DNA of 64,000 nucleotides from the NCBI GenBank assembly GCA_043805415.1, contig JAZDHZ010000007.1, positions 93,786 to 157,785 on the forward strand. The letters are read 5' to 3'. The stretch comes from Candidatus Omnitrophota bacterium. Lineage in GTDB: Bacteria > Omnitrophota > Gorgyraeia > B26-G9. Positions within the stretch are counted from its first letter, which is position 1. Every line of letters begins with the position of its first letter. The translations under genes and the position numbers were made by a program. The notes under the pieces are model-generated. The model saw only the letters and a program-made list of their open reading frames with translations. It ran no database searches and was not told the DNA's origin. Below, piece by piece: positions 12,291-31,139 of this stretch.

Positions 12291-12478
12291 AATTTAAACC
12301 TTATATATTTTAATTCAGAACAGAGGTGACTCCCCACTATAATTTACAGACAATACAATTAATACAGGGCTAGATTAGCTTGCTTAGATAAAAACAGCCT
12401 GTGCTTTGCTGAAAATTGAAGCTAATTATTCGCAACACCTTGAAATTATAAATAGTTAGACTATTTTCGTGTAAAAAT

Positions 12479-12507
12479 AATATAGCAAAAAACAGCTAAG
12501 TTGTCAA
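12479..12507 (-). promoter_or_regulatory. Candidate sigma70-type promoter for the wecA-like operon
   Basis: The minus strand reads TTGACA (12507-12502), a 17-nt spacer, then TATATT (12484-12479), about 190 nt upstream of the ATG at 12290. AT-rich background makes chance matches possible. Confidence 0.4.
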
Positions 12508-12625
12508 ATGAATAGAATCTGTAAATCAGAAAGGAAAACAGGAGAAATAAAGGAATTTTAAAAGTCAGGAATTGCTATGGAAATATGGTTTATTCCGCGG
12601 ACTCAACTTAAGACAAACATATAAC

Positions 12626-13009
12626 TTATGACGACAGCTCTAATCCTTCGAGAAAATCATCAACAATTTTTTTATTCTGGTCATTTTTCCACCAGGAAAA
12701 GCTTATCCCTGATCTATATTTATCAGCATCCTGGTAAGTCCATTCCACTTTGCCGAAAACTCTTATTGGGCTAATAGTTTCATTTAGTAAAATATCTATA
12801 CTTAGACGTGTGCCAACAGCCATTGTTTCTTTTGAATAAATTCCTGCGCCGAAAAGAGTAAAATCCCGCAAAAAGCATTCTGTTCCGTTCCAATAGCGAA
12901 ACCATGCCTGCGGATCTAAGGGCCTAACCTGTACAGCTGATTTATCAGCTAATTTTCTTATATTCGCTCTCTGTTCCTTTGCGATAATATCCATATTTTT
13001 TTGCTCCAA
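12626..13009 (-). CDS. Stand-alone PilZ domain protein (putative c-di-GMP receptor)
   Basis: RxxxR (R-ANI-R) followed by a D-x-S/T-x-x-G-type motif (DFTLFGAG). About 55% identical by eye to the PilZ gene at 37540..37899 (shared RPLDPQ.WFR.WN, IRVFGKVEW, SFSWWK). Confidence 0.75.
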   Translation of the reverse strand: MEQKNMDIIAKEQRANIRKLADKSAVQVRPLDPQAWFRYWNGTECFLRDFTLFGAGIYSKETMAVGTRLSIDILLNETISPIRVFGKVEWTYQDADKYRSGISFSWWKNDQNKKIVDDFLEGLELSS

Positions 13010-13262
13010 TTCAGCTTATTTCAGATTAATAGTTTCTTTAATTTATTTGCTCTTATTTAATCTATTTTTCAAACCCGCAGAGAATAAATCAAAACTATTT
13101 CCCATAGTTTTATAAAGCCTTTTTAAATATTTCATAAGTTTACACTAATGTTTAATTTTTTGCAAATTATTTTTTAAAAATGACAACCATTTTCACGTCA
13201 CCGCGTCGTGGAACGGTTGCAGCCAAATGGATGAATTAAGTATTGTGTCCCTTTATTTACCT

Positions 13263-13937
13263 TTATTTAGGCAGGGAAATTGTAGCAGTATAGTCATTTT
13301 TGTAAAATTCAGGGTTTGTTGTTTGTGTGCCCATGCCCATTTCTATGGTAATCAATACTTCTATCTTGCTCGGCGCTCCGTCAGTTCGTGAATCCCAGTC
13401 AATGAATGGAGCTCCGGAGCTGTCAAAAAAAGTAAATTGTAAATCAGTGATATTTTCGGAAAATGGATCGCTTGATCCAGTATTAAAATTAAAATCAAAA
13501 CCAACCGGATCTAAGGTTTTTCTACCGTCAGTAACATAAAATCTTTCTAATACATCATCATTTAATTCCGCGGTTCCCTGCCCATCCAGCCAGAATCCAA
13601 CTTCACATAAATCGGATTTATCAGCTTCATTTGGATTTAAAGCAGCAATAAAATAAAGTTCATCGCCAATGCTATCTGTTCTCCATCCGCTGGGAGTGGT
13701 TTTATCAAATCCTAAACAATAAAAATTATTACCTTCTCTAATCACCGCGCTGGAAATCTCTCGAGTCATTCGATCTAAAACAACCCGCGCGATAGTCGTA
13801 GATTTTAAAATATTATCCGCCTTTTTCCAAGCACGCAAAGAAACATTAAAAACCGAATACAAAATCGCTATCAGTAAAGCAAGAATTCCGATAGAAACTA
13901 AAAGCTCAATCAGGGTAAATCCTTTTTTTAAAACCAT
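13263..13937 (-). CDS. Type II secretion / type IV pilus-like pseudopilin (GspJ/PulJ-like)
   Basis: Prepilin-type N-terminal cleavage/methylation motif KKG|FTLIELLVSIGILALL followed by 'VVLDRMTREISSA', as in minor pseudopilins. The start overlaps the stop of the upstream gene. Confidence 0.75.
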   Translation of the reverse strand: MVLKKGFTLIELLVSIGILALLIAILYSVFNVSLRAWKKADNILKSTTIARVVLDRMTREISSAVIREGNNFYCLGFDKTTPSGWRTDSIGDELYFIAALNPNEADKSDLCEVGFWLDGQGTAELNDDVLERFYVTDGRKTLDPVGFDFNFNTGSSDPFSENITDLQFTFFDSSGAPFIDWDSRTDGAPSKIEVLITIEMGMGTQTTNPEFYKNDYTATISLPK

Positions 13938-16240: not shown

Positions 16241-16278
16241 CCGTCCTTGGCTAAACTACACTATTCATAGTTAATTTC

Positions 16279-18231
16279 CTAAAATATATTATACTCCTCT
16301 TTGGCAAAAATTGCAAAATTAGTGCCCGCGGCTGAGATTGAGCCGCTATCCGGCGTATACCAGCCATGTCCGGTATCAACAGCGCTATTACTGGCATAAG
16401 GCAAGCCTCCGCTGCCTTTGCTTAAACCAAAGGCTGAACGCACAAGCATCAGTTTTTCCAGCTCGCCCAGATAATAATCCGCTCTGCGCTCATATTTATC
16501 CGCCTTAGCCGGATCTGATTGCTGTTTATAAAAACTGCTGATCTGGCGAAAAGCGACAACCATTTGCGCTGTCCATTCTACTGAAATTGTTCCGCTTCTG
16601 CTGATGCTTGAAGGCGCGCAAAAATCAAAACCGCTTATGTTTATTTTTTTGCCTGAAATATTTTTAACATTTATAGTGGTCTTGCAATTTTCCTCCGCGC
16701 AGTCGATCAGATCATCAATTGTAACTCCCATATCTTCCAGTCCTTCCGGGCCAAAAGCCATAATGCTCAGGGCAATCGTATCAGTCGCGATCATCCGATC
16801 ATCAGTACCGCGATTAAATCTTTTTAATGTTTTATTATAAGCGGTATCTTTAAGCCAGCCATGTATTTTCCGCGCGGCCAGAGCATAGCGCTGATCATGC
16901 TCGGTTTTAAATAGGGTTTTAAAAAATATATACGCGGCAATATTCTGCTCTGTACCGGCCCAACTAACCTGAGGCCCTCCCGGCAAAGATCCATCACTAT
17001 TTTTGTTTTGCAAATCAAGCAGCCAATCAGCTATTTCATAAACCAGTTTGCTATAGGTATTTTTACCAGTAGCTTGTTCATAACGCATAATTGCCAGGCC
17101 TAAATAGATAACTGGTCCGGTGTGCACAATATATTCTGAAACATTGCCGGTAATTACATCATAGGCATTAGCAAACCCGCCTTGAACTTTTTTAGCGCGG
17201 TTATTAAAAAAATCAAAAATAAGTTCCGCCTTTTCAAACTGTTTAAAATTAATAAAATTAAACGCGCTCAGAGCCTGGTCATAAGTAAATCCGACATCGA
17301 TTAAAGCATGATCATTATCATAACTTACAATAAGCCCGGTCTTACTGCTTTGCGAAGCAATAAGCCATTGCCGCATTAAATCCAGAGTCTTATCTTCTAA
17401 AACAACTCTTTTATCACTGATTTTCTCAAGCTTGGTCTCCAAAACAGCCTGGGTATCAGTGTATTTATTAAGCTTAGTCTGCATCTTTTGTTTTTCCGCG
17501 AATAAGTCAGCGAGCTGTTTTTTTAGCTTGCTTTGATCTACCAGCAATTTTTCAACTTCTTCAGTATTCTGCTCGCCGGCTTGCTGATTTTTAAGCGTCT
17601 CGATCTTTGCTAATTTTTCCTTCATCTGATTTTCCGCTTTTGAACTATTATTCAGCATATTGGCTAAAATAAACTTTTCCGCTTTAATTTTATCCAGTTC
17701 TTGGTTTACCATAAACTGTTCATCATTTAACTGTCCCAGATGCTGAACAAGTAAACTATTATCGCGGGTAAGCCGGATATTGTCATAAGCTAAAAACCCG
17801 CAAAATAAGACTAATAGCAAACCAGCCAAAGCAATCATCCGCGGAATAGCCAGCATAATCTTAGCAAAACGGATTATGCGTTTTTGTTCAACTTGATCAA
17901 TCGCTTCATACGCTAATCCGAGCATATAACTTTGGGGATAGGGAGCGGCGGTTTTTTTTGACCAGGCAACACGCGCGATGGCTTTAATTGGGTTTTGGGT
18001 TAAGGGAATATTTAAAAATACTTGAAGTTTGTTTTTGTTGTTTTTCAGTAATTCAGTATGCTCCTGGCTTAAACTGTTTATTTCCACGCATACACCTGAA
18101 AAACTTACGTCCCGGGTAAACCCCTGCATTAAATCGCTGATCGGCTTATTTTGAGCATCAACTATTTTTAATTCAACCGGAAATATCTTATTGAGCCGAA
18201 CGTATTTTCTTTGATCATTTATCATAGGCAA
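16279..18231 (-). CDS. PilZ - TM - coiled coil - alpha/alpha-toroid-like domain protein (C-terminal domain paralogous to giant ORF aa ~2605-3040)
   Basis: The N-terminus has RxxxR (R-KYV-R) and DVSFSGV (DxSxxG), followed by a TM segment (LAIPRMIALAGLLLVLFCGFLAY) and a Q/K/E-rich coiled coil. The C-terminal ~350 aa align motif-by-motif with the giant ORF: FTYDQAL/FTYDLAL, LQNKNSDGSLPGGP/LQDEDGGIRQGP, TEQNIAAY/TEENINAF, ATDTIALSIMAFGPE/ATDVNALAVIVLGPE. Confidence 0.7.
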   Translation of the reverse strand: MPMINDQRKYVRLNKIFPVELKIVDAQNKPISDLMQGFTRDVSFSGVCVEINSLSQEHTELLKNNKNKLQVFLNIPLTQNPIKAIARVAWSKKTAAPYPQSYMLGLAYEAIDQVEQKRIIRFAKIMLAIPRMIALAGLLLVLFCGFLAYDNIRLTRDNSLLVQHLGQLNDEQFMVNQELDKIKAEKFILANMLNNSSKAENQMKEKLAKIETLKNQQAGEQNTEEVEKLLVDQSKLKKQLADLFAEKQKMQTKLNKYTDTQAVLETKLEKISDKRVVLEDKTLDLMRQWLIASQSSKTGLIVSYDNDHALIDVGFTYDQALSAFNFINFKQFEKAELIFDFFNNRAKKVQGGFANAYDVITGNVSEYIVHTGPVIYLGLAIMRYEQATGKNTYSKLVYEIADWLLDLQNKNSDGSLPGGPQVSWAGTEQNIAAYIFFKTLFKTEHDQRYALAARKIHGWLKDTAYNKTLKRFNRGTDDRMIATDTIALSIMAFGPEGLEDMGVTIDDLIDCAEENCKTTINVKNISGKKINISGFDFCAPSSISRSGTISVEWTAQMVVAFRQISSFYKQQSDPAKADKYERRADYYLGELEKLMLVRSAFGLSKGSGGLPYASNSAVDTGHGWYTPDSGSISAAGTNFAIFAKEEYNIF

Positions 18232-18285
18232 ATAATATCGGGTATCAGTTGATTTAGGGTTTCAGGTTAAATGACTTAAGGTTTA

Positions 18286-20109
18286 TTATTCGATCGCGAA
18301 CGAAAACTTTTTGCTTATTTTTTTATCTTTAATCGTAATTAAAAGCTCCGCTTGATAATCGCCGGCCTGCTCAAATACATGGCTAAAACTTCTTTCCTGA
18401 GAAAGCACCAGCTCTTGGCCGTTGATATTCCAGCTCCACCGCATATCTTTTTCCTGAATGCTTGCTGGAAAAATATTAACGCTAAACTCAACTGGCTGAC
18501 CTAGTTTAGCTTTCTTGCCAGCAGGCATATTGATAACTATATCATGCATCCAAACACTTCGGCAAACAGCATTCTCACTGCCCTCTGTTTTAGCGCTAAG
18601 ACATAAAAGCTTCGGCAGCGCTGCAGCATATGTGGTGCTGAATTCAGTAACATTGCCCGGTAAATTATTTGAACCTTTATCCCAAAACCACTCAAAATTA
18701 AATGTTGGCTGAACTGTGCCCACGGAAAAATCCTGGGCCGTTGCCTGCCAATTTACAGTTTCTTCCAAAAACCCGTTCTGAGGTATGCTTTTTAAAGTCA
18801 TTACGATATTAGAACCTTGCGCGCTAAACATCATATCCAGCGGATAAGCCACTTCATTTTTTATCGGAATTTCATTATCAATCTCTTGTTTACGCTCAGC
18901 TGCCTGGAGGGAAAAAGCCTTGGCTTTATTAATCAGGCGCGTGAATAATTCACCTGCCTTTTGCTTATCACCCTTCCATTGCGTAACTAAACCAGCCTGA
19001 TAAGCGCAGAAATCAGCATAGTCAGAATCAGCAAATTCATTATTTACTTTTTCCAGATAATCTAATCCTTGGTCTATCTGTCCAAGATAAAAAAGATTCA
19101 AAATCCCCAAACGGGTATAGACTTCAGCTAAAAACTGACTTTGCGCGGAACTTTTAATAAACTGCTTATATTCTTCTTGGGCGCGTTTATAATCGCTGAG
19201 TGTTTCCAGATTAAGCCCTCTATCAAAAATTTCCGCTTCCGTAAAAACTTCTTGGCCAAAACTTTTTTCGGCTTTAGCGTATATTTGCTCAGCAAAGTCG
19301 GCGTCTAAGGCCGGGCAAAATCCATAATCGCGAAATTTATCACAGATATTCATCAAAACGATCTTGGCATCAAGTTTAGAATATCTTAGCAAAACAAAAT
19401 CAATATAATGACCATAAACAACAATTGCCATATCAATTTGCCCGGCACTTAGATATCCATCCGCGATTTCCTGTAAACGCCGCGCGGAAGAAGCATCAGC
19501 ATTATTGGCGATTAAATAATCTTTATACGCAACAAATAATTGATTAAGCTGGTGCTTTCTTCCTTCGGAAGCAATAATTTTAGCAACTTCCTGGAATTTT
19601 TTAATATCCCCGGTTTTTTCGGTATACGCGATAACATTATTGACAAAATTATCAAATACTTCCTGCGATGCTTGCTCATTCTCATCACGCAAGTATGCTT
19701 TTTGCGCCAAATACTGCAAATCAATCAACTCTCCAGTTATTGCCGCGCTGGCATATTTAGCTGCTGTCTGAATTATTTGTTCATCCAACTCATCCATATT
19801 GTCATAATAATCCTGCCAAAGCTCTTTTTTTTCCAGGTTATCAAGATACAAGGAATCAGCCAAAGCTAAATAGTATTCAATTAAAAAAATATCATCTGAT
19901 TCTATGGCTTGGGTTTCAAGCTGATTAAAATATTCCCTCAGCCCGCTAAAATCTTCTTTGGAAACAAAATCAACAAAACGAGCTTTTATTTGATCAGCAG
20001 AAAAACCATCTTCGGCTAAACCCAGAGTTCCGCTTAGCATAAAACTTATTAGCATAAACATTACCCACACTAAATCCAATTTTTTGCGATTAAAAACGAA
20101 ACTATTCAT
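18286..20109 (-). CDS. Secreted TPR-like repeat protein with C-terminal PKD/Ig-like domain
   Basis: Signal/TM at the N-terminus (VWVMFMLISFMLSGTLGLA), then helical-repeat character (YYLALADSLY, AEVYTRLGILNLFYLGQIDQGLDYLEKV). The C-terminal 'RWSWNINGQELVLSQERSFSHVFEQAGDYQAELLI' resembles PKD domains. Confidence 0.5.
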   Translation of the reverse strand: MNSFVFNRKKLDLVWVMFMLISFMLSGTLGLAEDGFSADQIKARFVDFVSKEDFSGLREYFNQLETQAIESDDIFLIEYYLALADSLYLDNLEKKELWQDYYDNMDELDEQIIQTAAKYASAAITGELIDLQYLAQKAYLRDENEQASQEVFDNFVNNVIAYTEKTGDIKKFQEVAKIIASEGRKHQLNQLFVAYKDYLIANNADASSARRLQEIADGYLSAGQIDMAIVVYGHYIDFVLLRYSKLDAKIVLMNICDKFRDYGFCPALDADFAEQIYAKAEKSFGQEVFTEAEIFDRGLNLETLSDYKRAQEEYKQFIKSSAQSQFLAEVYTRLGILNLFYLGQIDQGLDYLEKVNNEFADSDYADFCAYQAGLVTQWKGDKQKAGELFTRLINKAKAFSLQAAERKQEIDNEIPIKNEVAYPLDMMFSAQGSNIVMTLKSIPQNGFLEETVNWQATAQDFSVGTVQPTFNFEWFWDKGSNNLPGNVTEFSTTYAAALPKLLCLSAKTEGSENAVCRSVWMHDIVINMPAGKKAKLGQPVEFSVNIFPASIQEKDMRWSWNINGQELVLSQERSFSHVFEQAGDYQAELLITIKDKKISKKFSFAIE

Positions 20110-20149
20110 GCGCGATCACTTCCTTTGGTTTTGTCTGATTATTTTTACT

Positions 20150-21439
20150 TTATTTTTTGCCTGTTTCTTTGTCCTGTTCAGGTTCTTTATCCTGATATTC
20201 TTTATTCCAAAGCTTACGCAAAACATAATAAGCTTTCCTTGGGTTTCTTTTATTTAAACCATTGGCATCAAGCTCAGGATCTAAGCCCACAATCCCGAAC
20301 CATTCTTCATTCATATTCTTGTCCGCTTTAGCGTCAAAATCATATGAACCCATGCCCCAAGCAGCGACATTATCATGAACCCACCAGCTGTTTCGATCGC
20401 TTTCCGAGCTTTTCCACCATTCATCATTCCATTCAAATACAACTCCGCCCAGACAATTACCCACTCCCTCGCCGCCATCCATGTTGTTTTGAATGTCAAG
20501 CCATTGACTTTTCAAAAATTTTGCCTGGTTTTTCTGATCTTCTTGTTTTTTCACCATATTATAGGCGTCACAGCCAAACTCGGTTAAAATAACCGGCCGG
20601 TCAAACTTACGTTTTACTTCTTTAAAAAAGTTGCCAAATACCTTACCGCGATAGACAATACATCCAAGCAAATCAATATCCGGACAATTTTCCGCTGCTA
20701 TTTTCAGACCAACAGTCTCACCATTGCCTAAAGAGACCAGATGGATAGGATCAATTTCCTTTATTTTTTTAGCCAGTTCATTAACAAAGGAATAATATAT
20801 TTTAGCCCGCGCGTCTCTTTTTTTGCCAAAACTATCCATTGCGTCGATTTCATCGCTTGACCAGGGATTTATTCTGCCGTCAAAACTATAATTATTTTCA
20901 TTGCCTAAATTCCAGATTAGTATTCCAGGGGTATCTTTAAAATATTCTACTGTATTTAAGACTTTCTCCGTGATTTCTTTTCTAAACTCCGGATCAGCAT
21001 AATTAGCAGGAGGATAATCCCAAAAACCAAGCGTATAGCCTAAAATAGTCCGAATCCCGTATATCTTATATAAGTCCTCAATCATTGTCCGACAAAATTC
21101 CAGCTCATCTCCGCTATGATAGAGTCTGATCGTATTCACACCCATTTCTTTCATTAATTTTCCATCAACTAACCAGGGTCGCTTCGGGTCGCAGACAAAA
21201 TTATATAAAATTCCCTGCTGACCTATGGGCACTGGGGAATAACAAACCCCTTTTACAATAAACGGTTTTTTATCAACAATCAGCTGATAGTTATATTTTT
21301 GTTCATCTTCTCTGCTTTGTTTTTTAATTTTTATTTTCTTAATATAAACCTTACCCTTAGGCTCTTGTTTTAACAGACTGCATCCTGTGATTAATAAAAA
21401 AATTAATAATAACGTAATTTTACGAATTTCCATATTCAT
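20150..21439 (-). CDS. Lipoprotein, clan GH-A (beta/alpha)8 glycoside hydrolase/transglycosylase with GH72 (Gas/Gel)-like motif series
   Basis: Lipobox LLITG|C. Motifs run in GH72 order: FIVKGVCYSP, MGVNTIRLY, IWNLGNENNY (candidate acid/base E), LGNGE, DLLGCIVYRG, PVILTEFGCDAY (candidate nucleophile E), GGVVFEW. Paralog of 23063..24955. Confidence 0.6.
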   Translation of the reverse strand: MNMEIRKITLLLIFLLITGCSLLKQEPKGKVYIKKIKIKKQSREDEQKYNYQLIVDKKPFIVKGVCYSPVPIGQQGILYNFVCDPKRPWLVDGKLMKEMGVNTIRLYHSGDELEFCRTMIEDLYKIYGIRTILGYTLGFWDYPPANYADPEFRKEITEKVLNTVEYFKDTPGILIWNLGNENNYSFDGRINPWSSDEIDAMDSFGKKRDARAKIYYSFVNELAKKIKEIDPIHLVSLGNGETVGLKIAAENCPDIDLLGCIVYRGKVFGNFFKEVKRKFDRPVILTEFGCDAYNMVKKQEDQKNQAKFLKSQWLDIQNNMDGGEGVGNCLGGVVFEWNDEWWKSSESDRNSWWVHDNVAAWGMGSYDFDAKADKNMNEEWFGIVGLDPELDANGLNKRNPRKAYYVLRKLWNKEYQDKEPEQDKETGKK

Positions 21440-21547
21440 ATTAAAAAAACCTTTCCCCTGATTTTAAAATTATTACCCAATACATCTCTTCACTCTTGCT
21501 TTGAAAAATCACCCATCTAAGCTAAATTACAATCTCATATAGCAAAT

Positions 21548-21580
21548 AAGGGTAGGAACTAGAATCAGGCCCCTACCCTT
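21548..21580 (-). terminator. Weak terminator/attenuator candidate (hairpin only)
   Basis: aagggtagg (21548-21556) pairs with cctaccctt (21572-21580): a 9-bp stem with a 15-nt loop, 28 nt after the stop at 21608. The downstream minus-strand sequence AUUUGCUAU is only a weak U-tract. Confidence 0.3.
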
Positions 21581-21607
21581 ACTTGTTGATATTTATCAAT
21601 CTAATAA

Positions 21608-22258
21608 TTATTTTTCGTAGCGGATATCATCCAGGTAGAAAACAGCTCCATCTGGATTAGAATCAGCATTAGATGCCCAGCAGAAACCGCCATTTATATA
21701 GGACAAATCAACATCTGTCAAATCAATAGTATATTGCAGCCAGTCAGCAGTAAGGTCAATCGGCCCAATTCCTACAGAATCAGAATCGCCATAAGTTCCT
21801 CCGATACCGCCCATTTTAAATTCCATGATGCGTTCATTACCAACTTTACCTTTTGCCCAGAATGTAATTTTTTTTGCTCCGCGCAGATCAAATCCGCCTT
21901 TTTTCTCACCCCAGTTGTTTGCCGGGTTCTGCCAAAATACTCCGGCCCAATTTGCCCCTTGTTTGCCTTTCGCGGTATAAATAAACTCTATACAGGTCTT
22001 TCCCTCATGAGGAGCTACAGCACAATTAAGATCCATTTTTACATCCCCGGAATCTCCCATCCAACCCGAAGGTATATAATGATTTACTCTATCGCCTCTA
22101 TCTTTATATACATAGAAATTTCCGTCCTGAAAATCCCCGGCTTTACCCAACAGTACTTCATCCGCTGCTTCATCTTCCAAATCCTGCGCGGCAACTATCG
22201 GAGCACAAAGCATCAAGCTCACACATAAAATTGCCATAAACCAAACTAACTTTTTCAT
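21608..22258 (-). CDS. Secreted beta-sandwich, carbohydrate-binding-module-like protein (paralog A)
   Basis: The preferred start is the ATG at 22258 (MKKLVWFMAIL...), preceded by GGAGGAAGG. The track start at 22297 lacks this. Signal peptide ...APIVAAQD. Conserved core shared with 22396..23022: W.G.(F/Y)W.NP..NWG.KKGG(F/Y)DLR.AKK(I/L)TFWA.G..G.E.I..F..GG..G.Y.DSD..GIGP..LT.DW.QY..D; the C-terminus is YLDDIRYE. Confidence 0.55.
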   Translation of the reverse strand: MKKLVWFMAILCVSLMLCAPIVAAQDLEDEAADEVLLGKAGDFQDGNFYVYKDRGDRVNHYIPSGWMGDSGDVKMDLNCAVAPHEGKTCIEFIYTAKGKQGANWAGVFWQNPANNWGEKKGGFDLRGAKKITFWAKGKVGNERIMEFKMGGIGGTYGDSDSVGIGPIDLTADWLQYTIDLTDVDLSYINGGFCWASNADSNPDGAVFYLDDIRYEK

Positions 22259-22395
22259 CCCTTCCTCCTTTAAATGAGCGCTTGACTTACGGAGCATTTT
22301 TGCGGCGTCAAGTCAACCAGCTCGAATTTAGTCCGAAATGTCTGCGGCCTAGCAGGCACTTTCGGAATCATTATTAATTCTAAGCCATTAAACTA

Positions 22396-23022
22396 TTATT
22401 CATATTTTATATTATCCAGGTAAAAAACACAACCTTTTCGATTATGCGCCTTAGTCAGAGCAAAACTAAACCCAGCAAAAATATACTTCATATTTCTTTG
22501 CGAAACATCCACGGAATACTGTTTCCAATCGGGAGTTAATACCACTGGCCCAATCCCATGATTATCAGAGTCAGGATAATTCCCTTTTAAACCGCCTAAT
22601 CTAAAAACAGCTATATGTTCACCTCCTTTTTCTCCTCTGGCCCAAAAAGTAAGCTTTTTTGCAAAGCGCAGGTCATAGCCACCCTTTTTCTGCCCCCAGT
22701 TACCCGGAGGATTAACCCAGTAAAGGCCAGCCCATCCAAAGTCTCCGGTTGCGTCATATTTTATCTTAACACAGGTATTGCCGGATTGAGGATTTTCCTT
22801 ACACCCCTCATCAACCACAATCGCCTGTCCATCACCAATAGTCTGGGAAGGGAAAAAACTGTTTTCCTTTGCCTCTTTATCTGAATAAACTATTTGCTCA
22901 GTAATCGCCGATACTTGCGCTTCTGGGGCTGGTTCTTTGTCTAAGTCTTGCTGCGCAACGGCATAACTATTTATAGCAGCTATCAAACTGACCAATAATA
23001 TCAGCAAGAAAATCTTTTTCAT
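22396..23022 (-). CDS. Secreted beta-sandwich, carbohydrate-binding-module-like protein (paralog B)
   Basis: Signal peptide MKKIFLLILLVSLIAAINSYAVAQQ. It has the same conserved core as 21608..22258 and ends YLDNIKYE. Confidence 0.55.
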   Translation of the reverse strand: MKKIFLLILLVSLIAAINSYAVAQQDLDKEPAPEAQVSAITEQIVYSDKEAKENSFFPSQTIGDGQAIVVDEGCKENPQSGNTCVKIKYDATGDFGWAGLYWVNPPGNWGQKKGGYDLRFAKKLTFWARGEKGGEHIAVFRLGGLKGNYPDSDNHGIGPVVLTPDWKQYSVDVSQRNMKYIFAGFSFALTKAHNRKGCVFYLDNIKYE

Positions 23023-23062
23023 TTTTATCTTTTTCCTTAATTTGCCTGATTGCTAAACAATC

Positions 23063-24955
23063 TTATCCCTCAACCCAAATCTTTTGCAATTCAAAGTAAG
23101 CTTTTTTAAGCTGCCGCATAAACGGAGAATCTGTTCCATCGCCTTGGCTGGTAATCCCAAACCATTCTTCATAATACCATCCGTCGACAAACGGTCCGCC
23201 GCAATTAGGGGTAACATCCTGAATTATATCCGGAAATCCCGGAGGAGCTCCGGTCTTCCACCACTCATCAATAAATTCAAACACAACCCCTCCCAAAGCA
23301 TTGCCAGCACCAAAACCCGCGCTGTTTTGCGCAATATCCTGCCAATTGTTAACCAGATAATCAGCCTGAAAGTTTTCAGCATATTCCCGGCTGTATCTAT
23401 GCCCATAAGATGGACATCCATATTCTGTGACCATTGCCGGTTTATCAGCAACTTCCTTAATTGGCAGCCATAAATTAAAATAGCCAAAACCATGCTTGCC
23501 TCTATAGGCATTTACTCCTAGAATATCAATGTCCGGACAATTTCCCGCGAAAATATCGAGAAAATGGATATCGCCATTGCATAAAGCTACCGGATGATAG
23601 GGATCAACTTCTTTAATCTTTTTTGCTACTTCATTTACAAAATGATAATAAGCTTCTGGGTTTTTAGGTGAATTATTGGCTATCCCATAATTATTTTCAT
23701 TGCCCAAAACCCACATCAGCACACACGGTTCATCCTTATAGTTATTAACCATCTTCATTACTGAATCAAGCATATTACTCTGATGTTCTGGATTAGAATA
23801 GTCAGTTCCCGGAACCCAAGAAGCCTTTGAACCAACCGCGTACATGCCCAGGAAATCACCAATAATAATCCGAATACCATAGTCCTTATATAAATCTACA
23901 AACAGCTGCTTGTTTTTTACAAAATCATGGTGGTAAACTCTTAACACATTTACTCCCATATCTTTCATAATCTGAAAATCACCAATAGCCGGCTCATCAC
24001 CTTCCTGGATATTGTTCCTGTTCTTATCAATCCAAGCGTCATAAGGACCATCAATCTTATTATTTTGGTTCTCATCAGATAAAGACCAATCTTTTAATGT
24101 GCCGATATCCGGACTCTGTCCGATCTTAGTTGGCTGATAAGCCATGGCTTTGATTATAAACGGCTGACCGTCTACTTTCATCTGCCAATGACCATTTTCA
24201 TATTTTGTCAAAGTAACATGCCCATAGACTTTTTGTTGTTTGACTTTCAGGCTGGACATATTTATTTTTTTATCCACTACCTGATTGGGCTCAACCTTAA
24301 TTAATTTTCCAGGATTAATACTAAACACATCGTTTCTTAGATCTTCATCGTATCTATTTTCAATCGCGATCCTGGCATCAACCAGCTTAATTCCCAGTTC
24401 AGGATATTTTTTAGTTAAATACATGATTCGATCTAAAGCTGCCGGTCCGACATACCAGGGAGTTCCCCAGTAAGTAACACCCATGCTCTTGGGAAAATGT
24501 ACTGCCGCGGCATAATAAGCTTTTATTGCCTGGCTAATATGCCCGGCATTTTCCAATATTTCCGCGGTATAAAACAGTTTTATTCCCTGATCCTCAGCAG
24601 CGGTTGCCCATTTATAAAATGCCGCCTGATAATCAAAAATATTTACAAATGACCAGTGGCTGCCCAGGAGTTTTTTCGCTTTATTAAACTCCTTGTATTG
24701 AGGATCCTTGGTTACATTGGTATTTGGGAATATGCCTTCGCCAACCGCGGCAGATAATCCTTTGGGATCTTTTAATTGGTATTTATATTTGGCTGTATTT
24801 AGATTCTTAAACTCTCCGTACTTTTCATAATCGATAATAATTTCCGGACCCTGATTCTCCAATTTAAAAGTCGGCTCAGGCAGCGCGAAAACATCGCTCA
24901 AATTATAAATAAAACTAAGAATTAAAAATGTAAAAACCAGTTTTTTAAACCGCAA
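23063..24955 (-). CDS. Secreted clan GH-A (beta/alpha)8 glycoside hydrolase/transglycosylase, GH72 (Gas/Gel)-like motif series, with ~250-aa N-terminal extra domain
   Basis: Signal peptide (FTFLILSFIYNLSDVFA). Motifs: FIIKAMAYQP, MGVNVLRVY, MWVLGNENNY, VALCNGD, DILGVNAYRG, PAMVTEYGCPSY, GGVVFEF. Paralog of 20150..21439. Confidence 0.6.
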   Translation of the reverse strand: MRFKKLVFTFLILSFIYNLSDVFALPEPTFKLENQGPEIIIDYEKYGEFKNLNTAKYKYQLKDPKGLSAAVGEGIFPNTNVTKDPQYKEFNKAKKLLGSHWSFVNIFDYQAAFYKWATAAEDQGIKLFYTAEILENAGHISQAIKAYYAAAVHFPKSMGVTYWGTPWYVGPAALDRIMYLTKKYPELGIKLVDARIAIENRYDEDLRNDVFSINPGKLIKVEPNQVVDKKINMSSLKVKQQKVYGHVTLTKYENGHWQMKVDGQPFIIKAMAYQPTKIGQSPDIGTLKDWSLSDENQNNKIDGPYDAWIDKNRNNIQEGDEPAIGDFQIMKDMGVNVLRVYHHDFVKNKQLFVDLYKDYGIRIIIGDFLGMYAVGSKASWVPGTDYSNPEHQSNMLDSVMKMVNNYKDEPCVLMWVLGNENNYGIANNSPKNPEAYYHFVNEVAKKIKEVDPYHPVALCNGDIHFLDIFAGNCPDIDILGVNAYRGKHGFGYFNLWLPIKEVADKPAMVTEYGCPSYGHRYSREYAENFQADYLVNNWQDIAQNSAGFGAGNALGGVVFEFIDEWWKTGAPPGFPDIIQDVTPNCGGPFVDGWYYEEWFGITSQGDGTDSPFMRQLKKAYFELQKIWVEG

Positions 24956-25007
24956 TTAAATCATCCCTTTCATATATCCGCCAAAATACTCAAAAAATCT
25001 TATCCGC

Positions 25008-26447
25008 TTAACAGCCGCGGCGTTCTTCCAGTATCCTGCGCACTTCCAGTGCTTTTTCTTCTGTTCCTTTAAAAGTAAAAATTGTTATCACCGCGATCAG
25101 TGAGGTTATCATCGGAACACTGATATCAAATACTCTTAAAAGCAATAATGTTTTAACTGTCTGCTGTCCGCCCAAATCAACCCTAAAGCCAGTCGCATTA
25201 AGCAGATGTCCTGACATGGCAAAAGCCAAAGCCATGCCCAGCTTTACCATCCACCAGTATATTGATCCAAACATGCCTTCTCTGCGTTCGCCGGTTTCCA
25301 ATTCATCAACATCGCAAACATCAGCCATCATCGCTCCCATTAAGGTGAAAAGCCCGCCAAGACCAAAAGCAATAAACGGCGCGGGGATAAGCAGCATTTT
25401 CGGATGCCCCGGCTGATAGCAAAACCATTTCATCGCGTATCCAATAATCGATACAGATGTTGAGAAAATAAAAGCCTTTCTTTTTCCTATTTTTGTGGAA
25501 ACCCAAGTAATAAAAGGAATTACACAAAAAGTAGAAATCGATGAAACCGTGCCGAATAAGCCCATATATGTAGCTCCGGCATCACTATTACCGCCAAAAA
25601 CATAATAAATAATTACATATGAAGAAAACGCGGAAACCAGCATAAAACCATTAAAAACCAGGAATGTTGAAGTGCAAAGCTTAAGAAATGGCTTGGATTT
25701 AAGCGTAATCAGAAACCCTTTAAAAAACTTTACAATATTTTTACCCAGACCAGCAATAACTACTGTTTGTTTATGCTTGGCGTCTTTTATATTGCCAAAT
25801 CTTTCTTTACAGAAAATCGCCGGCATTATCCCGGCAACCATAACAAATACTCCGACCATGATCGCTAATCCGCGCGCGCCTTCCACAGGATTAGCAAACC
25901 ATTTATCATTTTCCATGATTTTCCAAAACCAGGGAGCAATAACCCAGGCAAATTGACCAATCCAGTTGCTAAAACCCATAACCCGAGTACGCTCATGATA
26001 ATCCGGCGTCATTTCATATCCCAGGGCTACCCAAGGCGTAGCAAAAACAGTATAGGCAAGATAAAAAATTATCGATACAATCAGAAAATACCAAAAATAA
26101 AAATTTTCGCTTCGCCCGGAATGCAGCTGCCACATCATCGCAAAGATAATTCCTGAGGATATCGCGCCCCAAAAGATATATGGTTTGCGCCTGCCGAAAC
26201 GCGATCTGGTATTATCAGAAATATATCCCATGATCGGATCAGTTAAGGCATCAGTAAGCCGCGGCAATGCCATGAGCGTCCCAACCACTGCCGGATTTAT
26301 TCCCAGTCCGAGATTCAGCACAATCGCCATACAGCCAACAGCAGCTCCCAAAAGATTATTAACTAATCCCCCAATGCCGTACACTAATTTCTGCCCAATA
26401 CTTACACGATCTTGGGGAGCGGTCTTCCAATCCTTGATCTCACTCAT
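25008..26447 (-). CDS. Glycoside-pentoside-hexuronide (GPH):cation symporter family sugar transporter (MFS)
   Basis: GPH hallmark 'RLTDALTDPIMGYISDNTRSRFGRRKPYIF' and about 12 hydrophobic segments. The preferred start is the ATG at 26447 (MSEIKDW...) with AAGGAG 5-6 nt upstream. The track start at 26525 adds 26 poorly supported residues. Confidence 0.8.
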   Translation of the reverse strand: MSEIKDWKTAPQDRVSIGQKLVYGIGGLVNNLLGAAVGCMAIVLNLGLGINPAVVGTLMALPRLTDALTDPIMGYISDNTRSRFGRRKPYIFWGAISSGIIFAMMWQLHSGRSENFYFWYFLIVSIIFYLAYTVFATPWVALGYEMTPDYHERTRVMGFSNWIGQFAWVIAPWFWKIMENDKWFANPVEGARGLAIMVGVFVMVAGIMPAIFCKERFGNIKDAKHKQTVVIAGLGKNIVKFFKGFLITLKSKPFLKLCTSTFLVFNGFMLVSAFSSYVIIYYVFGGNSDAGATYMGLFGTVSSISTFCVIPFITWVSTKIGKRKAFIFSTSVSIIGYAMKWFCYQPGHPKMLLIPAPFIAFGLGGLFTLMGAMMADVCDVDELETGERREGMFGSIYWWMVKLGMALAFAMSGHLLNATGFRVDLGGQQTVKTLLLLRVFDISVPMITSLIAVITIFTFKGTEEKALEVRRILEERRGC

Positions 26448-26550
26448 TTGAGCTCCTTCCCTATTTTTGTAATTAGCGGCGATCTTCGTCCTTGCTTTAA
26501 TAAACTTTACGAATATTTTCAGCAATTTTTTTGGATCAAGCCCTGCTTAA

Positions 26551-26584
26551 GTAAATAAAAAAGCCCATATAAGTTTATATGGGC
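26551..26584 (-). terminator. Rho-independent terminator candidate downstream of the 1422-aa gene
   Basis: gcccatataa (26563-26572) and ttatatgggc (26575-26584) form a perfect inverted repeat. On the minus strand the hairpin is followed by a T6 run (plus A-run 26557-26562). Confidence 0.55.
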
Positions 26585-26829
26585 GTGACAATTTTATGAT
26601 TAATTGACAAACTATTGAATATAAATTGTTTTTGCAAGTAACAATTAGACATATTTTTCCTTTGAAAACTTAATTTCGGGGAATTTCCTTCCTTATATAA
26701 ATAGGTATTAATTGAACCCTTTTTATAACATAAATCAACTTTCATGTCAAGCTGAATAAACCTTGCGTATTTTTGTACTGATATTAAACCGTAAACAGTA
26801 TGTTTTTTATTATCCTGCCCTAAACATTA

Positions 26830-29800
26830 TCAAATCGCGCTTTCGATCCGCGGCGCGGTTTCAAAAGATCCATTGTCTTGTTGGCTTTTAAACGGGAAAA
26901 CATTGAAAAAGCCTTCATGTTCTTTTGTTCCTAAAACAGACAAGATTTCATCGCTGATCATTTCCGTGTTTTTTCCGCTGATATAGATCACCCGGTTCTT
27001 CTGCACATCCACTCGGCCATTAACCATGTCCATCCCTTCGGGTATGGTGTATAAGTCCATATCCGCAATAACATCCAGATCAATCGGAATATTCAGTGAC
27101 CTTTCCTCCGGGGTCCCGCTTAGTATGAACTGGAACAACCCCGGGGTGTCCTGCCAGAGCCGCGGGCCAATAGCGTAGATAACTCCCCGCCACATTTTTG
27201 AATCTTTAATGTCTTTTCTTTTTTCCAAAAGAAATTGTTCAATCATAGTGTAAAACCGGGGATCATTGGCAATGGTGTGGAGGAATTTCATAAAACTGGT
27301 ATGGCTAAATTTTGCCTGAATTTCGCGGCGCAGCGTAATAGACTGAGCATCAGCCGCGTCCGCGGGCAGATCAATCGACATATTATCGATAAACAAAGTA
27401 TCTTTCGTAAAATCCATTCTTTTCGCGAGAAAATCGCGGGAAAAATCAATCAAAGCTTCTAAATATTGTTTTTTAAATTTTTCCAGTTTTTTTATATTTC
27501 TTCTTACTTCCGGGTCAAATATTTTTTGAGGATCAACCTTATCCCAGTTTATCCCCTGAACAGCCTTTTCCAAAGACATTGGGCCTCTTTCCGTGATCAC
27601 ATCAAAATCCTTAAGCATAAAATAGCCCAGTGCCCGAATAACATCGCCGACAACAATGTTTTTATAACCTTTGCGGCTGCCGATTTTAAATGACGCCGGT
27701 ATCCGCAGGGAACCGGCAGTCCCGCCGATAGTCAGGGAAACAAACTCTGCCTGCGGCTCAGGAATACTTAATTTTCGGATATTAGCCTGTATCGGCAAAT
27801 ATATTTTAAAGATGGCACAGGGTTGGGTCGTTTTTTTATACGGCGCAGCCGGTATTACCTCCCAGCGGCCGCCGCTAATATGCGTAATTTCGGAAAAAAG
27901 GGCTAAATTGCAGCAATACTTACTGTCTTTGCTAACCACATCCACTTTCGGCCGAATCGCGTAAATCTCGATCGCCAATTCCCGGTTTTGTTCGCGCACA
28001 TCTATTTCCACTTCTTCGGCCCGGGAAAAAGCCGCGCTATTGAGAAATTCACTAAGCATAATCCGCAAACCAGACTTATAACTCAGCACTTCGCCTAATT
28101 CGCCGGTCTTATTTAAAAAATTAATCCGTAATTTGCCTGCTTCCGGCAAGCGGTGCCGGAAATCGGCAATGATCTCCTGGATCGCAGTCTTGACCTCAAA
28201 ACTTTCCGTGGTCCGGTAAGAATAAGCCAGGATCTCCGTGATCTTACGCATTAAATCCGTTGTCCTGCTCTTCAAATCCTCGGCCGTAATCGTATGAATA
28301 ATATTATTCAGAATATTGATCAGCCGGCCTTTTTCCACTGTATTGTTCAGCAGATACTCCCGCTTATCATCCTCCAATTGCTTAACAATCGCGGAAGCGT
28401 TGATCAAGTCACCCCTTTTCTCTAGCTGATCAATCGCCGTTAAGATATGGGTGAAAATATTAACCGCCATATCCTGCGTGATCGCTAACTCCTTTTGCAG
28501 ATTTTCCCTGGTCTTACCGCTGGTAATCGCCCATTTAACCATAGAGTTATTTTCAGCGTTTTGTAAATACGACATCAAGGCCTTGACGATTAACAGCTTC
28601 TTCTTTAACGGATATTTGCCGATCATGAAATTGGCGATCATTAAGGGAGAAAACTCTTTGATTTTTCCTTCCTTAATGTCTGATTCGATTTGGCGTCCGG
28701 CTTCCCTTACTGTCTTGACCATATCGCGCAGCTCTTCTTGAATGACATGAACATCCGCTGCTGCCAGATGATGTTCCAATTGTTGACTGGAAATATTTTT
28801 AAAGGCCTCAATCAGATTAAAATCCGATGATAGATATTCAAGCTCAGATATCCGGTTATGAACTTCAAACACGTTTTGTCTTTTGGCCCGCAGAATTTTC
28901 AAAAAATCCGACAAACCAAATCCTTGCGTTCCGGCGCGATATTTGCGAATATAATTACTTATGTCCCTCAGCAGACGGCCGTAGGGCGCAACTACTATCT
29001 TACCTTTCGGATTATCTTTGAACCAGGAGCGGATAAGCCTTATTTCCTGATAAGCCTTTCTGCTCAGTTCATGCAAACTTTCTATATCGCGGTTTAACAC
29101 CTCCAGCCGGCCGACAACCGGGATTTGCATTGTTAATTCAACCCATTGTTTTTTTTGTTCATCGATCAAAAGCTGTACGTCGGTATTACCGCCGCCCGCG
29201 GCGATCGAGCGCCGCAAGTTCCAAAGATCCGTATTTAAAGAGTGATCATGGGTAAACAATTCAAACATGTAATATATGGACCCCGGGGCAATATTTTCCC
29301 CGTCATATTTAACCCTTAATTCTAAAACATTATAAACCGGTTCCAGTAATTCTCCGGCCACATTTATTGATTCTGCCGTGATAAAAACCTGCTTAGCTCC
29401 GCTGCTGAGCGCGTTTTTAATGATCGTGTTCAAATACGCGCTGAATTCTTCACAAACAACGACTTCGCTTTTGCGCGGCATTTTGTTATCCCAAAAAATA
29501 GTGATCCCAGGGCGTTTTCTCTCGAATTCTTTTTTGCAATTACCGATCAATTCGTCAAGATCCTGCCGTTTAAATTTTAAGGCCCCGCTGGTTACCGTGC
29601 TGAGGATATCAAAATTATTGGTTGCTTCGCGGAAACGCGCTATCCCGGATTCAATGATACTGGTATATTTCGCGGCGTGAGAATTCTCTTTTAAATCCCC
29701 CCAATATTCTTCCAGCTTTTCAATATACCTGCCCATCTGCTCCTGTAATTCATAAACGTATTCGTCGGCGCTGATGCCTTTGGTGAAAATTTCATCTTCA

Positions 29801-31098
29801 TTTACCGCTATTGTTTTCAAAATCTGAACCTCTATTTCCTGAAACAGCTTCAGCATCTCGAATATCACTTTTAATGATTCTGCCTCTTTGGAAGAAAGCT
29901 TATAGTCTGGAGAATCACTGATATGATCAATGCATTCCATAATACTGCGCGTGTTCATAGATTTTATTTCTTGTTTTTCTTTCTCCGGGATATCGGCATT
30001 GTTTAAAATACTCCGGGCAACGCGTACAAGAAAAGGAGCGAGAATATGCACGGGATTACGCATCCTGTCTTCGATCCCGCCGTTGATTTGAAGTTTACGG
30101 GCAAAATTAGTCCGGGTTTTCAATGCCTCGGCGCTTACTTCTTCAAAAACGTCTTTGCTTAAAATACTGATTAGTTCCGAAGCCACTGGGGAAGGATCGA
30201 AATTCTTTAAATCCTTAGCCAGCATATGGCGGATCTGAGTAACCGGATAACGCGCCAGCTCATTTAAAATTTCATGGGCTTTTTCTCCTATGTTTTTATT
30301 GGCATAATATAACATCATCTTCAAGGCATAGATTCTGTCCCAACTATTGCTTTCGTTATTCAAATAAGCGTATTTATACCCTTTTTCATTTTTTGTCCCC
30401 AGGCACTCCTTGCTCATCTCTTCTTTACCAATAACCACATCTTCAATATTTATTTCCGGCAAAGGCTCTCCAAAAGCGGTTGCATAAGCCGGCTTGTCCT
30501 CAAAAGCTGTATGCACGTAAAAAGTCGGCATAATTATCCCGGAAGTCAAAGGCATATTCTCAATTTGGATCCTGAATCCCACGCCGCGGATATCCTTGAT
30601 CCGCGCAAGTTCCTCTGGCGTAATCAGCTCTTCCGGCCTCTTTTTCCGGCTCCAGATGGGATTGGGATTGCCGAAGGCGTAAACATCCACCACATTTATC
30701 CTGGCCTGGCTTTCGTCTACATAGCAAGAGGTTTTGGAAACATTCACCGGCTTGACATTGATAATGATCTTTTTTTGCCGGATTAATTCCAGAAATTCTC
30801 CAATTGACATCTCCGGGCCGTAAATATTACCGTAAAGAAAAAAATTGTCTTTAAACGTGACTGGCTTTAACGGCCAAAACCCGATTTTTTCCACGCTGCT
30901 GATATGCAGCGGATTAGAACTAGCTTGCAGCGCGAATGAATCCATAAACAATGCTAAATTCAAATTTAATTCAGGAGAAAGACAGTCTGTTTGTTTGCTG
31001 AATAGCAGCTCTGTGCCTCCTGCCCAGGCAATATCTAACAGTAAAAATAAATTTATCAGCAATAAGCCAATTATTTTTAATACATTATTTTTTCTCAT
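26830..31098 (-). CDS. Very large (1422 aa) signal-bearing hypothetical protein with two degenerate GHKL/HATPase-like segments
   Basis: The N-terminal leader MRKNNVLKIIGLLLINLFLLLDIAWAGGTEL is shared with the neighbouring 1191-aa protein. Segment 1 (nt ~29150-29470): LNTIIKNALSSGAK (N-box-like), YDGENIAPGSIYYMFELF (G1/F-box-like), RRSIAAGGGNTDVQ. Segment 2 (nt ~27840-28090): LSEFLNSAAFS ... ITHISGGRWEV. No overall family was recognised. Confidence 0.5.
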   Translation of the reverse strand: MRKNNVLKIIGLLLINLFLLLDIAWAGGTELLFSKQTDCLSPELNLNLALFMDSFALQASSNPLHISSVEKIGFWPLKPVTFKDNFFLYGNIYGPEMSIGEFLELIRQKKIIINVKPVNVSKTSCYVDESQARINVVDVYAFGNPNPIWSRKKRPEELITPEELARIKDIRGVGFRIQIENMPLTSGIIMPTFYVHTAFEDKPAYATAFGEPLPEINIEDVVIGKEEMSKECLGTKNEKGYKYAYLNNESNSWDRIYALKMMLYYANKNIGEKAHEILNELARYPVTQIRHMLAKDLKNFDPSPVASELISILSKDVFEEVSAEALKTRTNFARKLQINGGIEDRMRNPVHILAPFLVRVARSILNNADIPEKEKQEIKSMNTRSIMECIDHISDSPDYKLSSKEAESLKVIFEMLKLFQEIEVQILKTIAVNEDEIFTKGISADEYVYELQEQMGRYIEKLEEYWGDLKENSHAAKYTSIIESGIARFREATNNFDILSTVTSGALKFKRQDLDELIGNCKKEFERKRPGITIFWDNKMPRKSEVVVCEEFSAYLNTIIKNALSSGAKQVFITAESINVAGELLEPVYNVLELRVKYDGENIAPGSIYYMFELFTHDHSLNTDLWNLRRSIAAGGGNTDVQLLIDEQKKQWVELTMQIPVVGRLEVLNRDIESLHELSRKAYQEIRLIRSWFKDNPKGKIVVAPYGRLLRDISNYIRKYRAGTQGFGLSDFLKILRAKRQNVFEVHNRISELEYLSSDFNLIEAFKNISSQQLEHHLAAADVHVIQEELRDMVKTVREAGRQIESDIKEGKIKEFSPLMIANFMIGKYPLKKKLLIVKALMSYLQNAENNSMVKWAITSGKTRENLQKELAITQDMAVNIFTHILTAIDQLEKRGDLINASAIVKQLEDDKREYLLNNTVEKGRLINILNNIIHTITAEDLKSRTTDLMRKITEILAYSYRTTESFEVKTAIQEIIADFRHRLPEAGKLRINFLNKTGELGEVLSYKSGLRIMLSEFLNSAAFSRAEEVEIDVREQNRELAIEIYAIRPKVDVVSKDSKYCCNLALFSEITHISGGRWEVIPAAPYKKTTQPCAIFKIYLPIQANIRKLSIPEPQAEFVSLTIGGTAGSLRIPASFKIGSRKGYKNIVVGDVIRALGYFMLKDFDVITERGPMSLEKAVQGINWDKVDPQKIFDPEVRRNIKKLEKFKKQYLEALIDFSRDFLAKRMDFTKDTLFIDNMSIDLPADAADAQSITLRREIQAKFSHTSFMKFLHTIANDPRFYTMIEQFLLEKRKDIKDSKMWRGVIYAIGPRLWQDTPGLFQFILSGTPEERSLNIPIDLDVIADMDLYTIPEGMDMVNGRVDVQKNRVIYISGKNTEMISDEILSVLGTKEHEGFFNVFPFKSQQDNGSFETAPRIESAI

Positions 31099-31139
31099 TA
31101 AGCTCTTCTTTGATTAAATATTTATCATTAACTAAAATA

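Follow-up and report, generated by a model that had tools for sequence, protein, structure and literature searches.

A putative beta-glucan capture, cleavage and import operon with two GH158-related glycosidases in a Candidatus Omnitrophota bacterium

We analysed a 64,000 bp stretch of a Candidatus Omnitrophota genome (contig JAZDHZ010000007.1, positions 93,786 to 157,785, assembly GCA_043805415.1; hereafter the window), in which one operon encodes two clan GH-A glycoside hydrolases (GH), here named GH-A1 and GH-A2, two small carbohydrate-binding module (CBM)-like proteins, X1 and X2, and a sugar symporter. Nearly all long open reading frames (ORFs) of the window lie on the minus strand. The five co-directional minus-strand ORFs of the operon were confirmed at the coordinates given by the original prediction, with gaps of 40-168 nt, and a purine-rich ribosome-binding site precedes each of the five genes. 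From the head of the operon they are:

25008..26447, minus strand: symporter, GPH/MFS_2-type sugar:cation, at the head of the operon; 480 aa when started from the ATG at 26447, with the mechanical ORF reaching back to the TTG at 26525
23063..24955, minus strand: GH-A2, secreted clan GH-A glycosidase of 630 aa; Sec signal peptide, N-terminal helical/TPR-like domain and TIM barrel
22396..23022, minus strand: X2, secreted stand-alone CBM-like beta-jelly-roll protein of 208 aa
21608..22258, minus strand: X1, secreted paralog of X2; likely start at the MKKL methionine at 22258, the mechanical ORF reaching 22297
20150..21439, minus strand: GH-A1, lipoprotein clan GH-A glycosidase of 429 aa; lipobox LLITG/C, short N-terminal beta-hairpin and TIM barrel

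The symporter ATG at 26447 is preceded by the ribosome-binding site GGAAGGAG, and it is a more plausible start than the TTG at 26525 because a terminator-like hairpin is located at 26563..26584. The X1 start at 22258 is preceded by AAAGGAGGAAGGG. The symporter matched Pfam MFS_2 at 3.1e-61 over residues 49-486, well above the cut-off, and MelB at 5e-36. A GPH-type symporter heads the operon, as had been proposed; judged from its sequence it is probably a divergent GPH member.

GH-A1 and GH-A2 are paralogs (35% identity, E 5e-67), and so are X1 and X2 (44% identity, E 6e-62). The original prediction had assigned the two enzymes to GH72, the fungal beta-1,3-glucanosyltransferases, through seven ordered motifs. 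Six of the seven are exact and in order in each enzyme and the seventh is a near-miss: DLLGCIVY in place of D..G.N.Y in GH-A1, and KAMAY in place of (K/R)G(V/M)xY in GH-A2. Because the enzymes are paralogous at the level given above, the motif resemblance reflects homology and not chance.

In the AlphaFold model of GH-A1 (predicted local distance difference test, pLDDT, 81.8) eight strands form a barrel, N180/E181 follow strand 4 and E287 lies on strand 7, which is the (beta/alpha)8 fold and glutamate placement of clan GH-A. These three residues are the predicted catalytic residues of GH-A1, and in GH-A2 the sequence points to N419/E420 as acid/base and E511 as nucleophile. In 34 homologs the Asn-Glu pair after beta-4 and the Glu at beta-7 never vary, and in alignments they fall on the catalytic Glu143/Glu229 of GH158(Pro), in line with the earlier assignment of both enzymes to clan GH-A with both catalytic glutamates. 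GH-A1 also has a Trp-rich loop (341-382) after strand beta-8, which is family-specific and invariant, and GH-A2 carries a conserved N-terminal helical/TPR-like domain (about residues 29-255) before its TIM barrel. An export signal was found in every member of the GH-A1/GH-A2 family, in GH-A1 as a bacterial lipobox and in GH-A2 as a Sec signal peptide.

GH-A2 also contains an insert at about residues 292-322, DENQNNKIDGPYDAWIDKNRNNIQEGDE, located after barrel strand 1 and resembling two EF-hand or dockerin-like calcium-binding loops. It is kept in the ortholog at locus L003 of another Omnitrophota genome, not in GH-A1, and no Pfam dockerin or EF-hand model matched GH-A2.

In the PDB sequence search, the best matches of both enzymes were the endo-beta-1,3-glucanases GH158(Pro) (PDB 9ORO/9P25) and BuGH158 (PDB 6PAL), at 3e-9 for GH-A1 and 4.8e-13 for GH-A2 over partial stretches; identity to GH158 was 23-25% (E about 1e-9 to 1e-13, part of the length). 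The GNE and TE(F/Y)G motifs align with the catalytic Glu residues of GH158, and the enzymes have the Asn-Glu and Glu equivalent to N136/E137/E220 of BuGH158. Searched against the PDB sequences, the family profile gave GH158 at 7e-12 and 7e-10, then GH2 and GH5 chains, and none of the 60 best chains (E up to 0.87) was a GH72 enzyme. Foldseek with the GH-A1 model ranked GH158 first and GH157 next. The structure-comparison figures were 28.1 for GH158(Pro), 27.8 for GH157, 27.2 for a GH5 mannanase, 27.1 for BuGH158, and 23.6 for the GH72 enzymes Gas2 and Gel4. Since these figures rank Gas2 18th and Gel4 19th, GH72 is a clan relative and not the family of these enzymes; comparison with Gas2 had been suggested as a check of the GH72 assignment, and it turned out against it. 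GH157, likewise a family of endo-beta-1,3-glucanases (LaGH157, PDB 9FZ9; BcellWH2_01931), gave no match in any PDB sequence search, and its structure-based identity is 21%.

Membership of GH158 itself was considered seriously and rejected once bona fide GH158 turned up in the same loci as relatives of the window family, which was the case in nine loci. A true GH158 from another phylum (locus L027, 610 aa) matched GH158(Pro) at 1.4e-102, with a further match at 1e-54, over its full length, and GH-A1 aligned with this protein at 23% identity over 199 aa. In GH158 enzymes the TIM barrel is followed at the C-terminal end by an immunoglobulin (Ig)-like domain that has eight strands and shapes the cleft (PMC7157763, PMC13195107). 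The GH-A1 model contains no C-terminal Ig-like domain and leaves no room for one, because it ends with a hairpin and helix alpha-8 straight after beta-8. As to the aromatic platform of GH158(Pro) (Trp77, Phe278, Tyr291 and Trp236), Phe278 corresponds to the family-invariant F335 and the neighbouring W337 aligns, while Trp77 and Tyr291 fall outside the alignment. The two enzymes thus resemble GH158 in the clan GH-A barrel, the aligned catalytic residues and the best sequence, profile and structure match, and differ from it in their own Trp-rich loop after beta-8, in the N-terminal hairpin and, for GH-A1, in the lack of the Ig-like domain. They appear to represent an uncharacterised bacterial family that is related to GH158 but distinct, a sister of GH158.

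The Pfam model for GH72 (PF03198, cut-off 25.9) matched GH-A1 at 27.1 bits, GH-A2 at 28.6 bits (E 1.1e-6) and the L003 ortholog of GH-A2 at 29.7 bits; in GH-A1 the match covers profile positions 24-176 of 314. GH2_C (PF02836) scored above GH72 in both enzymes, at 40.7 bits in GH-A1 and 47.0 bits in GH-A2 (E 2.5e-12), and in the Pfam survey of homologs GH2_C matched 23 of 34 and GH72 15 of 34. We had expected the GH72 hit to be a generic cross-hit at clan level. This was rejected, as the hit is confined to the Omnitrophota branch: its GH-A2 orthologs reproducibly reached about 29-30 bits, and the GH72 hits were reproducible at 27-30 bits. Neither bona fide GH158 nor the relatives of about 1,000 aa described below matched the GH72 model at E up to 1, which makes the resemblance specific to this branch.

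GH72 membership itself does not hold, because GH2_C outscores GH72, the profile is only partly covered in GH-A1, and the nearest structures are GH158 and GH157 rather than Gas2 and Gel4. As refuting outcome the original prediction had named a best match to another clan GH-A family without a significant GH72 match; the first part holds, and the second is borderline, since GH72 reaches significance marginally. The Glu acid/base after beta-4 and the Glu nucleophile after beta-7 expected for GH72 are present (E181/E287 and E420/E511), but their placement does not discriminate GH72 because it is common to all of clan GH-A. GH72 proteins show eukaryotic cell-wall features, namely a GPI (glycosylphosphatidylinositol)-anchor signal and often a Cys-rich CBM43/X8 domain. 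The enzymes have no X8/CBM43 Pfam match and their source is a bacterial metagenome-assembled genome. What they share with Gas1/Gas2, Gel and Phr is the clan, the catalytic geometry, similar strand beta-1, GNE and (S/T)E(Y/F)GC motifs and the marginal Pfam match; they differ in that GH72 is not the nearest family by any measure and in their catabolic gene context. There is a small chance that the Omnitrophota branch is the closest bacterial relative of GH72. It is highly unlikely that this branch, as the nearest prokaryotic relative of GH72, consists of beta-1,3-glucan transglycosylases which remodel a glucan that the giant protein encoded upstream would produce through its GT2-like domain, and so represents a bacterial forerunner of fungal wall remodelling.

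The enzymes are not GH2 either, because they lack the N-terminal sugar-binding domain and the Ig-like domain that precede the TIM barrel in GH2; of the GH2 models in Pfam, PF02836 for the barrel was the only one to match. PF26410, tagged on some homologs, is a GH5 mannanase model, and was rejected because its matches are faint. GH5_46 as the CAZy label of the relatives of about 1,000 aa is unlikely, because its characterised member has 576 aa and a different spacing of the catalytic Glu residues. Public pipelines label members of the family GH2, GH72, GH5-mannanase or nothing, a scatter that we would expect if the family is divergent within clan GH-A and none of the models used is dedicated to it.

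X1 and X2 have a CBM-type beta-sandwich fold and are secreted paralogs, as had been predicted. Nine bona fide GH158 proteins (585-632 aa) from Gammaproteobacteria and Cloacimonadota, at loci L018, L020, L021, L027, L029, L030, L033, L055 and L069, have the same X domain as their C-terminal module, and X1 matched the GH158-fused module at 6.7e-29. What is fused to GH158 in those proteins is thus free-standing here. No Pfam model matched the X module, apart from a faint CBM30 match (E 0.044), and it is a candidate new beta-1,3-glucan-binding CBM family. Between the X family and the CBM9-like proteins adjoining spirochete homologs of the enzymes no relation could be detected (hhalign probability 3.8%). 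An X homolog in Ca. Velamenicoccus archaeovorus was tried as a clue to context and gave no help, because it does not lie beside a glycosidase.

For comparison within the phylum we used seven loci on long contigs from different Omnitrophota/PVC metagenome-assembled genomes. All seven keep a core of a giant or large gene, a PilZ gene, a transporter, a large GH, X domains, a small GH and a TPR-like protein. The X domains occur as separate genes or as a fused tandem of 379-396 aa; at L006 the X gene was not called, and its ORF is present. GH-A2 is 52% identical to the 759-aa GH of L003 over almost the full length, including the N-terminal domain. In six of the seven loci the transporter is a sugar ABC importer, with a solute-binding protein (SBP) gene and two permeases (the SBP being unannotated at L006), where the window and L001 have the GPH symporter. 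A ROK kinase and a LacI regulator are added after the module in the same six, and one locus has a GH116 gene (264 bits). The exchange of the importer together with the kinase and the repressor argues for catabolism.

Through an exhaustive profile search of the enzyme family we obtained 2,915 representative clusters. Among them are relatives of about 1,000 aa, with 35% identity to GH-A1 over the whole catalytic domain (E 2e-72), from at least 538 species. This form is found in cultured Treponema bryantii, Thiospirochaeta perfilievii, Flavobacterium, Chryseobacterium, Bacteroides cellulolyticus and Myxococcus, and the only domain found fused to it is one CBM_4_9.

The neighbours of this form were surveyed at 80 loci from at least seven phyla, with ORFs called within 10 kb and counted by sequence searches. 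GH16 was found at 57 of the 80 loci, a CBM11/30-like protein at 47, GH17 at 39, a protein of about 1,150 aa of unknown family at 32, GH30 at 26, a Y_Y_Y (BguR-like) regulator at 24 and bona fide GH158 at nine. At least one of GH16, GH17, GH30 and GH158 occurred at 68 of the 80, a count in which the GH158 query also matches the family's own gene; most of the other 12 loci are short or incomplete stretches. When the neighbours within 8 kb were clustered at 75 loci and representatives annotated, GH3 was found at 26. Direct checks confirmed the neighbours in T. bryantii and T. perfilievii. This set is the composition published for laminarin loci (bioRxiv 10.64898/2026.01.10.698779; PMC10108472). 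The protein of about 1,150 aa (15457..18936 of L061 and 31 other loci) has no Pfam match, and its usual place is between GH16 and GH17. A possible identity is a GH149-type beta-1,3-glucan phosphorylase, a kind present in the published laminarin loci.

We consider the operon to be probably catabolic, serving to capture, cut and import a beta-linked glucan, for which a beta-1,3-glucan of laminarin or curdlan type is the likeliest candidate. The alternative raised in the original prediction, attack on glucan and its import, fits the evidence and is probably supported, and beta-1,3-glucan is the most likely substrate, as it had assumed. Under this reading, secreted X1 and X2 would bind the glycan chains, and the polymer would be cleaved by secreted GH-A2 and the membrane-tethered lipoprotein GH-A1. 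The reaction would be a retaining double displacement with Glu420/Glu511 in GH-A2 and Glu181/Glu287 in GH-A1, probably endo-acting and hydrolytic rather than transglycosylating. The oligosaccharides would then be taken up by the GPH symporter and broken down in the cytoplasm through functions encoded elsewhere in the genome; in relatives a ROK kinase, LacI and once a GH116 beta-glucosidase stand beside the module.

Several points weigh against this interpretation. Identity to characterised enzymes is low, and no measured activity of any member of the enzyme family was found in the literature. The residues of the GH158 subsites are kept only partly, with the +1 subsite Trp236 having no counterpart and aligning with N294. 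GH16, GH17, GH30 and GH3 are all absent from the window and from the seven Omnitrophota loci, so that the substrate assignment has to be transferred across about 35% identity. The symporter scored 1.1e-49 and 169 bits against the GPH model TIGR00792, below the curated cut-off of 231 bits, and its solute is a prediction. Finally, the window has no ROK or LacI gene, and PilZ, pseudopilin and glycan-export genes come after the operon, which leaves room for a role in the cell's own surface glycan.

Two further features flank the operon; the TPR/PKD protein listed first, a PilZ-domain protein and other genes come after GH-A1 at 38-54 nt spacing:

18286..20109, minus strand: TPR plus PKD-domain exported protein of 607 aa, directly 3' of GH-A1; PKD 7.8e-6, TPR_6 1e-4 (Pfam)
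26563..26750, minus strand: putative control region, with TTGACA at 26745..26750, 17 nt, TATAAA at 26722..26727, a 25-codon mini-ORF at 26575..26652 and a hairpin at 26563..26584

The TPR/PKD protein has an ortholog in L003, encoded by the gene that follows the small GH there (E 4e-32), and a TPR-like gene takes that position in all seven loci. In the control region, just upstream of the symporter, the promoter-like element and the mini-ORF were read straight from the sequence. The hairpin came from a terminator scan; it is strong (9 bp, GC-rich, with a T-run), overlaps the stop codon of the mini-ORF and separates the operon from the upstream gene. Promoter-like element, mini-ORF and hairpin together could form a leader-peptide attenuator. 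No Rfam family matched the control region or any part of 13000..38100.

Upstream of the operon, a giant ORF of at least 8657 aa (38025..63998, minus strand) runs off the end of the window. It contains Peptidase_M23 (1e-16), LysM, Helicase_C, a weak GH76 match and a sub-threshold GT2_3 match, the domain mix described for the 'Archaeovorin'-type giant proteins of Omnitrophota. Immediately following it, an ORF of 119 aa (37540..37899, minus strand) has the PilZ motifs RxxxR and DxSxxG and matches the small PilZ gene of the other loci. Between the giant gene and the sugar operon lies an AbiEii toxin gene (3e-28; 35160..36856, minus strand), for which small upstream ORFs may encode the antitoxin. 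A HicA/HicB pair was found at the equivalent position in L005 (1054..1475), and toxin-antitoxin modules may recur just downstream of giant genes. Two large minus-strand proteins, of 1422 aa (26830..31098) and 1191 aa (31140..34715), have almost no Pfam content, the latter showing HEAT repeats and a weak DUF218 match. Both carry a nearly identical N-terminal L(L/M)LDIAWAGGTEL; this stretch may be a signal or sorting sequence that the two proteins share.

On the downstream side, a 650-aa protein (16279..18231, minus strand) combines a PilZ domain (1.3e-7) at the N-terminus with a membrane segment, a long coiled coil and, at the C-terminus, a domain faintly like the (alpha/alpha)6 fold of GH76 (E 0.95). 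It may be an envelope protein controlled by cyclic di-GMP (c-di-GMP). It is unrelated to the GH116 of L003 or to the coiled-coil protein that other loci have in this place, and neither it nor a 767-aa protein has significant relatives in the PDB. The region 722..13937 (minus strand) encodes a pseudopilin-like protein (N_methyl), a WecA/MraY-type GT4 transferase, an amine-oxidase-type flavoprotein, an ABC-2 permease, a 1351-aa ABC ATPase and four radical-SAM/SPASM proteins. From the pseudopilin to the ABC-2 permease the gene order is identical in L001, and by its content the block looks like a unit for synthesis and export of a glycan or a modified peptide.

This setting bears on the other explanations of the operon. 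The enzymes might be accessories of the giant 'Archaeovorin'-type protein and cut a bacterial or archaeal envelope glycan of prey or host, other than classical beta-1,3-glucan, with import of the products. In the window, as in each of the seven Omnitrophota loci, a giant or large gene and a small PilZ gene do lie upstream of the module, and Peptidase_M23, LysM and the weak GH76 match are cell-wall-directed domains. The retrieved passages of two preprints (10.1101/2023.11.21.568195, West-Roberts et al. 2023; 10.64898/2026.06.07.730766) describe PilZ, carbohydrate transporters and 'GH2' glycosidases downstream of Omnitrophota giant genes, and there the glycosidases are called GH2 beta-galactosidase or glucuronidase types and read as degraders of prey cell walls. 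We regard this explanation as unlikely, since the relatives in free-living Bacteroidota, Spirochaetota, Myxococcota and Gammaproteobacteria lie in laminarin-type loci and not in loci for cell-wall lysis, the X domain is fused to true beta-1,3-glucanases, and the ROK kinase, LacI regulator and sugar ABC importer indicate ordinary sugar catabolism. Exopolysaccharide operons often include a glycosidase, of which PslG and BcsZ are examples, and the enzymes might in the same way trim or release the cell's own glucan matrix, possibly a product of the GT2-like domain of the giant protein, under c-di-GMP control via PilZ. The PilZ genes at 37540..37899 and 16279..18231, the GT4 initiating transferase and ABC-2 exporter downstream and the weak GT2_3 match agree with this. 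It is nonetheless quite improbable: an importer heads the operon and relatives swap in another importer with the ROK kinase and LacI, the GT2 signal is below threshold and no synthase is conserved beside the module across loci, and the relatives in other phyla stand in degradative loci.

Two further readings concern the enzymes more than the setting. If the public annotations were right in substance, they would be GH5-like beta-mannanases or exo-acting GH2-type beta-galactosidases or glucuronidases. The GH2_C scores given above come from the barrel model alone, with the GH2 sugar-binding and Ig-like domains absent; GH158 is clearly best in the sequence and profile searches, and the neighbours across phyla are beta-glucan enzymes instead of mannan or galactan enzymes, which makes this reading very improbable. 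Least credible is the fungal-style toolkit of the original prediction, in which GH72-type beta-1,3-glucanosyltransferases and a GT48-like synthase would make and remodel beta-1,3-glucan. Retaining clan GH-A enzymes can act as transglycosylases, and PF03198 lies just above its cut-off in both enzymes, in the L003 ortholog and in the 15 homologs, specifically in the Omnitrophota branch. The proposed GT48-like module, however, could not be recovered. When the window's reading frames of 150 aa or more, among them the 8657-aa giant ORF (scanned in two pieces), were compared with Pfam, no GT48 model matched, and the PDB sequence search gave no glucan-synthase chain; in the candidate region a lenient scan (E up to 10) found Glyco_trans_2_3 only, at 23 bits against a cut-off of 27. 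Building and remodelling also disagree with the surroundings, as the Omnitrophota core sits with an ABC importer, ROK and LacI and the relatives in other phyla sit in laminarin-type degradation loci.

Compared with the laminarin loci of marine Bacteroidota (GH16_3, GH17, GH30, GH149, GH158 and BguR), the relatives of about 1,000 aa stand inside such loci, the same kind of locus that holds GH158, and the window operon has the same logic of surface binding proteins, endo-glucanases and an importer. The Omnitrophota version differs in being reduced to a pair of paralogs from a single GH family, X modules that stand alone and an importer of MFS or ABC type, in lacking SusC/D, GH16, GH17 and GH30, and in its linkage to a giant gene and a PilZ gene. 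It is the same locus type as the Omnitrophota giant-gene flanks of the two preprints, whose retrieved passages do not mention the GH158 link, the laminarin-type loci or the GH158-fused CBM-like module. The locus type is therefore already known in outline. Our analysis adds that the enzymes are placed beside GH158, as a distinct sister with ties to laminarin-type loci, and that X1 and X2 are recognised as free-standing copies of a GH158-fused module.

These results correct an attractive idea, as there is no fungal GH72/GT48 toolkit in this bacterium. A widespread clan GH-A family that has been vaguely annotated as 'GH2 barrel' or 'hypothetical' appears to belong to laminarin-type loci, and the Omnitrophota 'GH2' genes beside giant genes, usually read as degraders of prey cell walls, may harvest beta-glucan.

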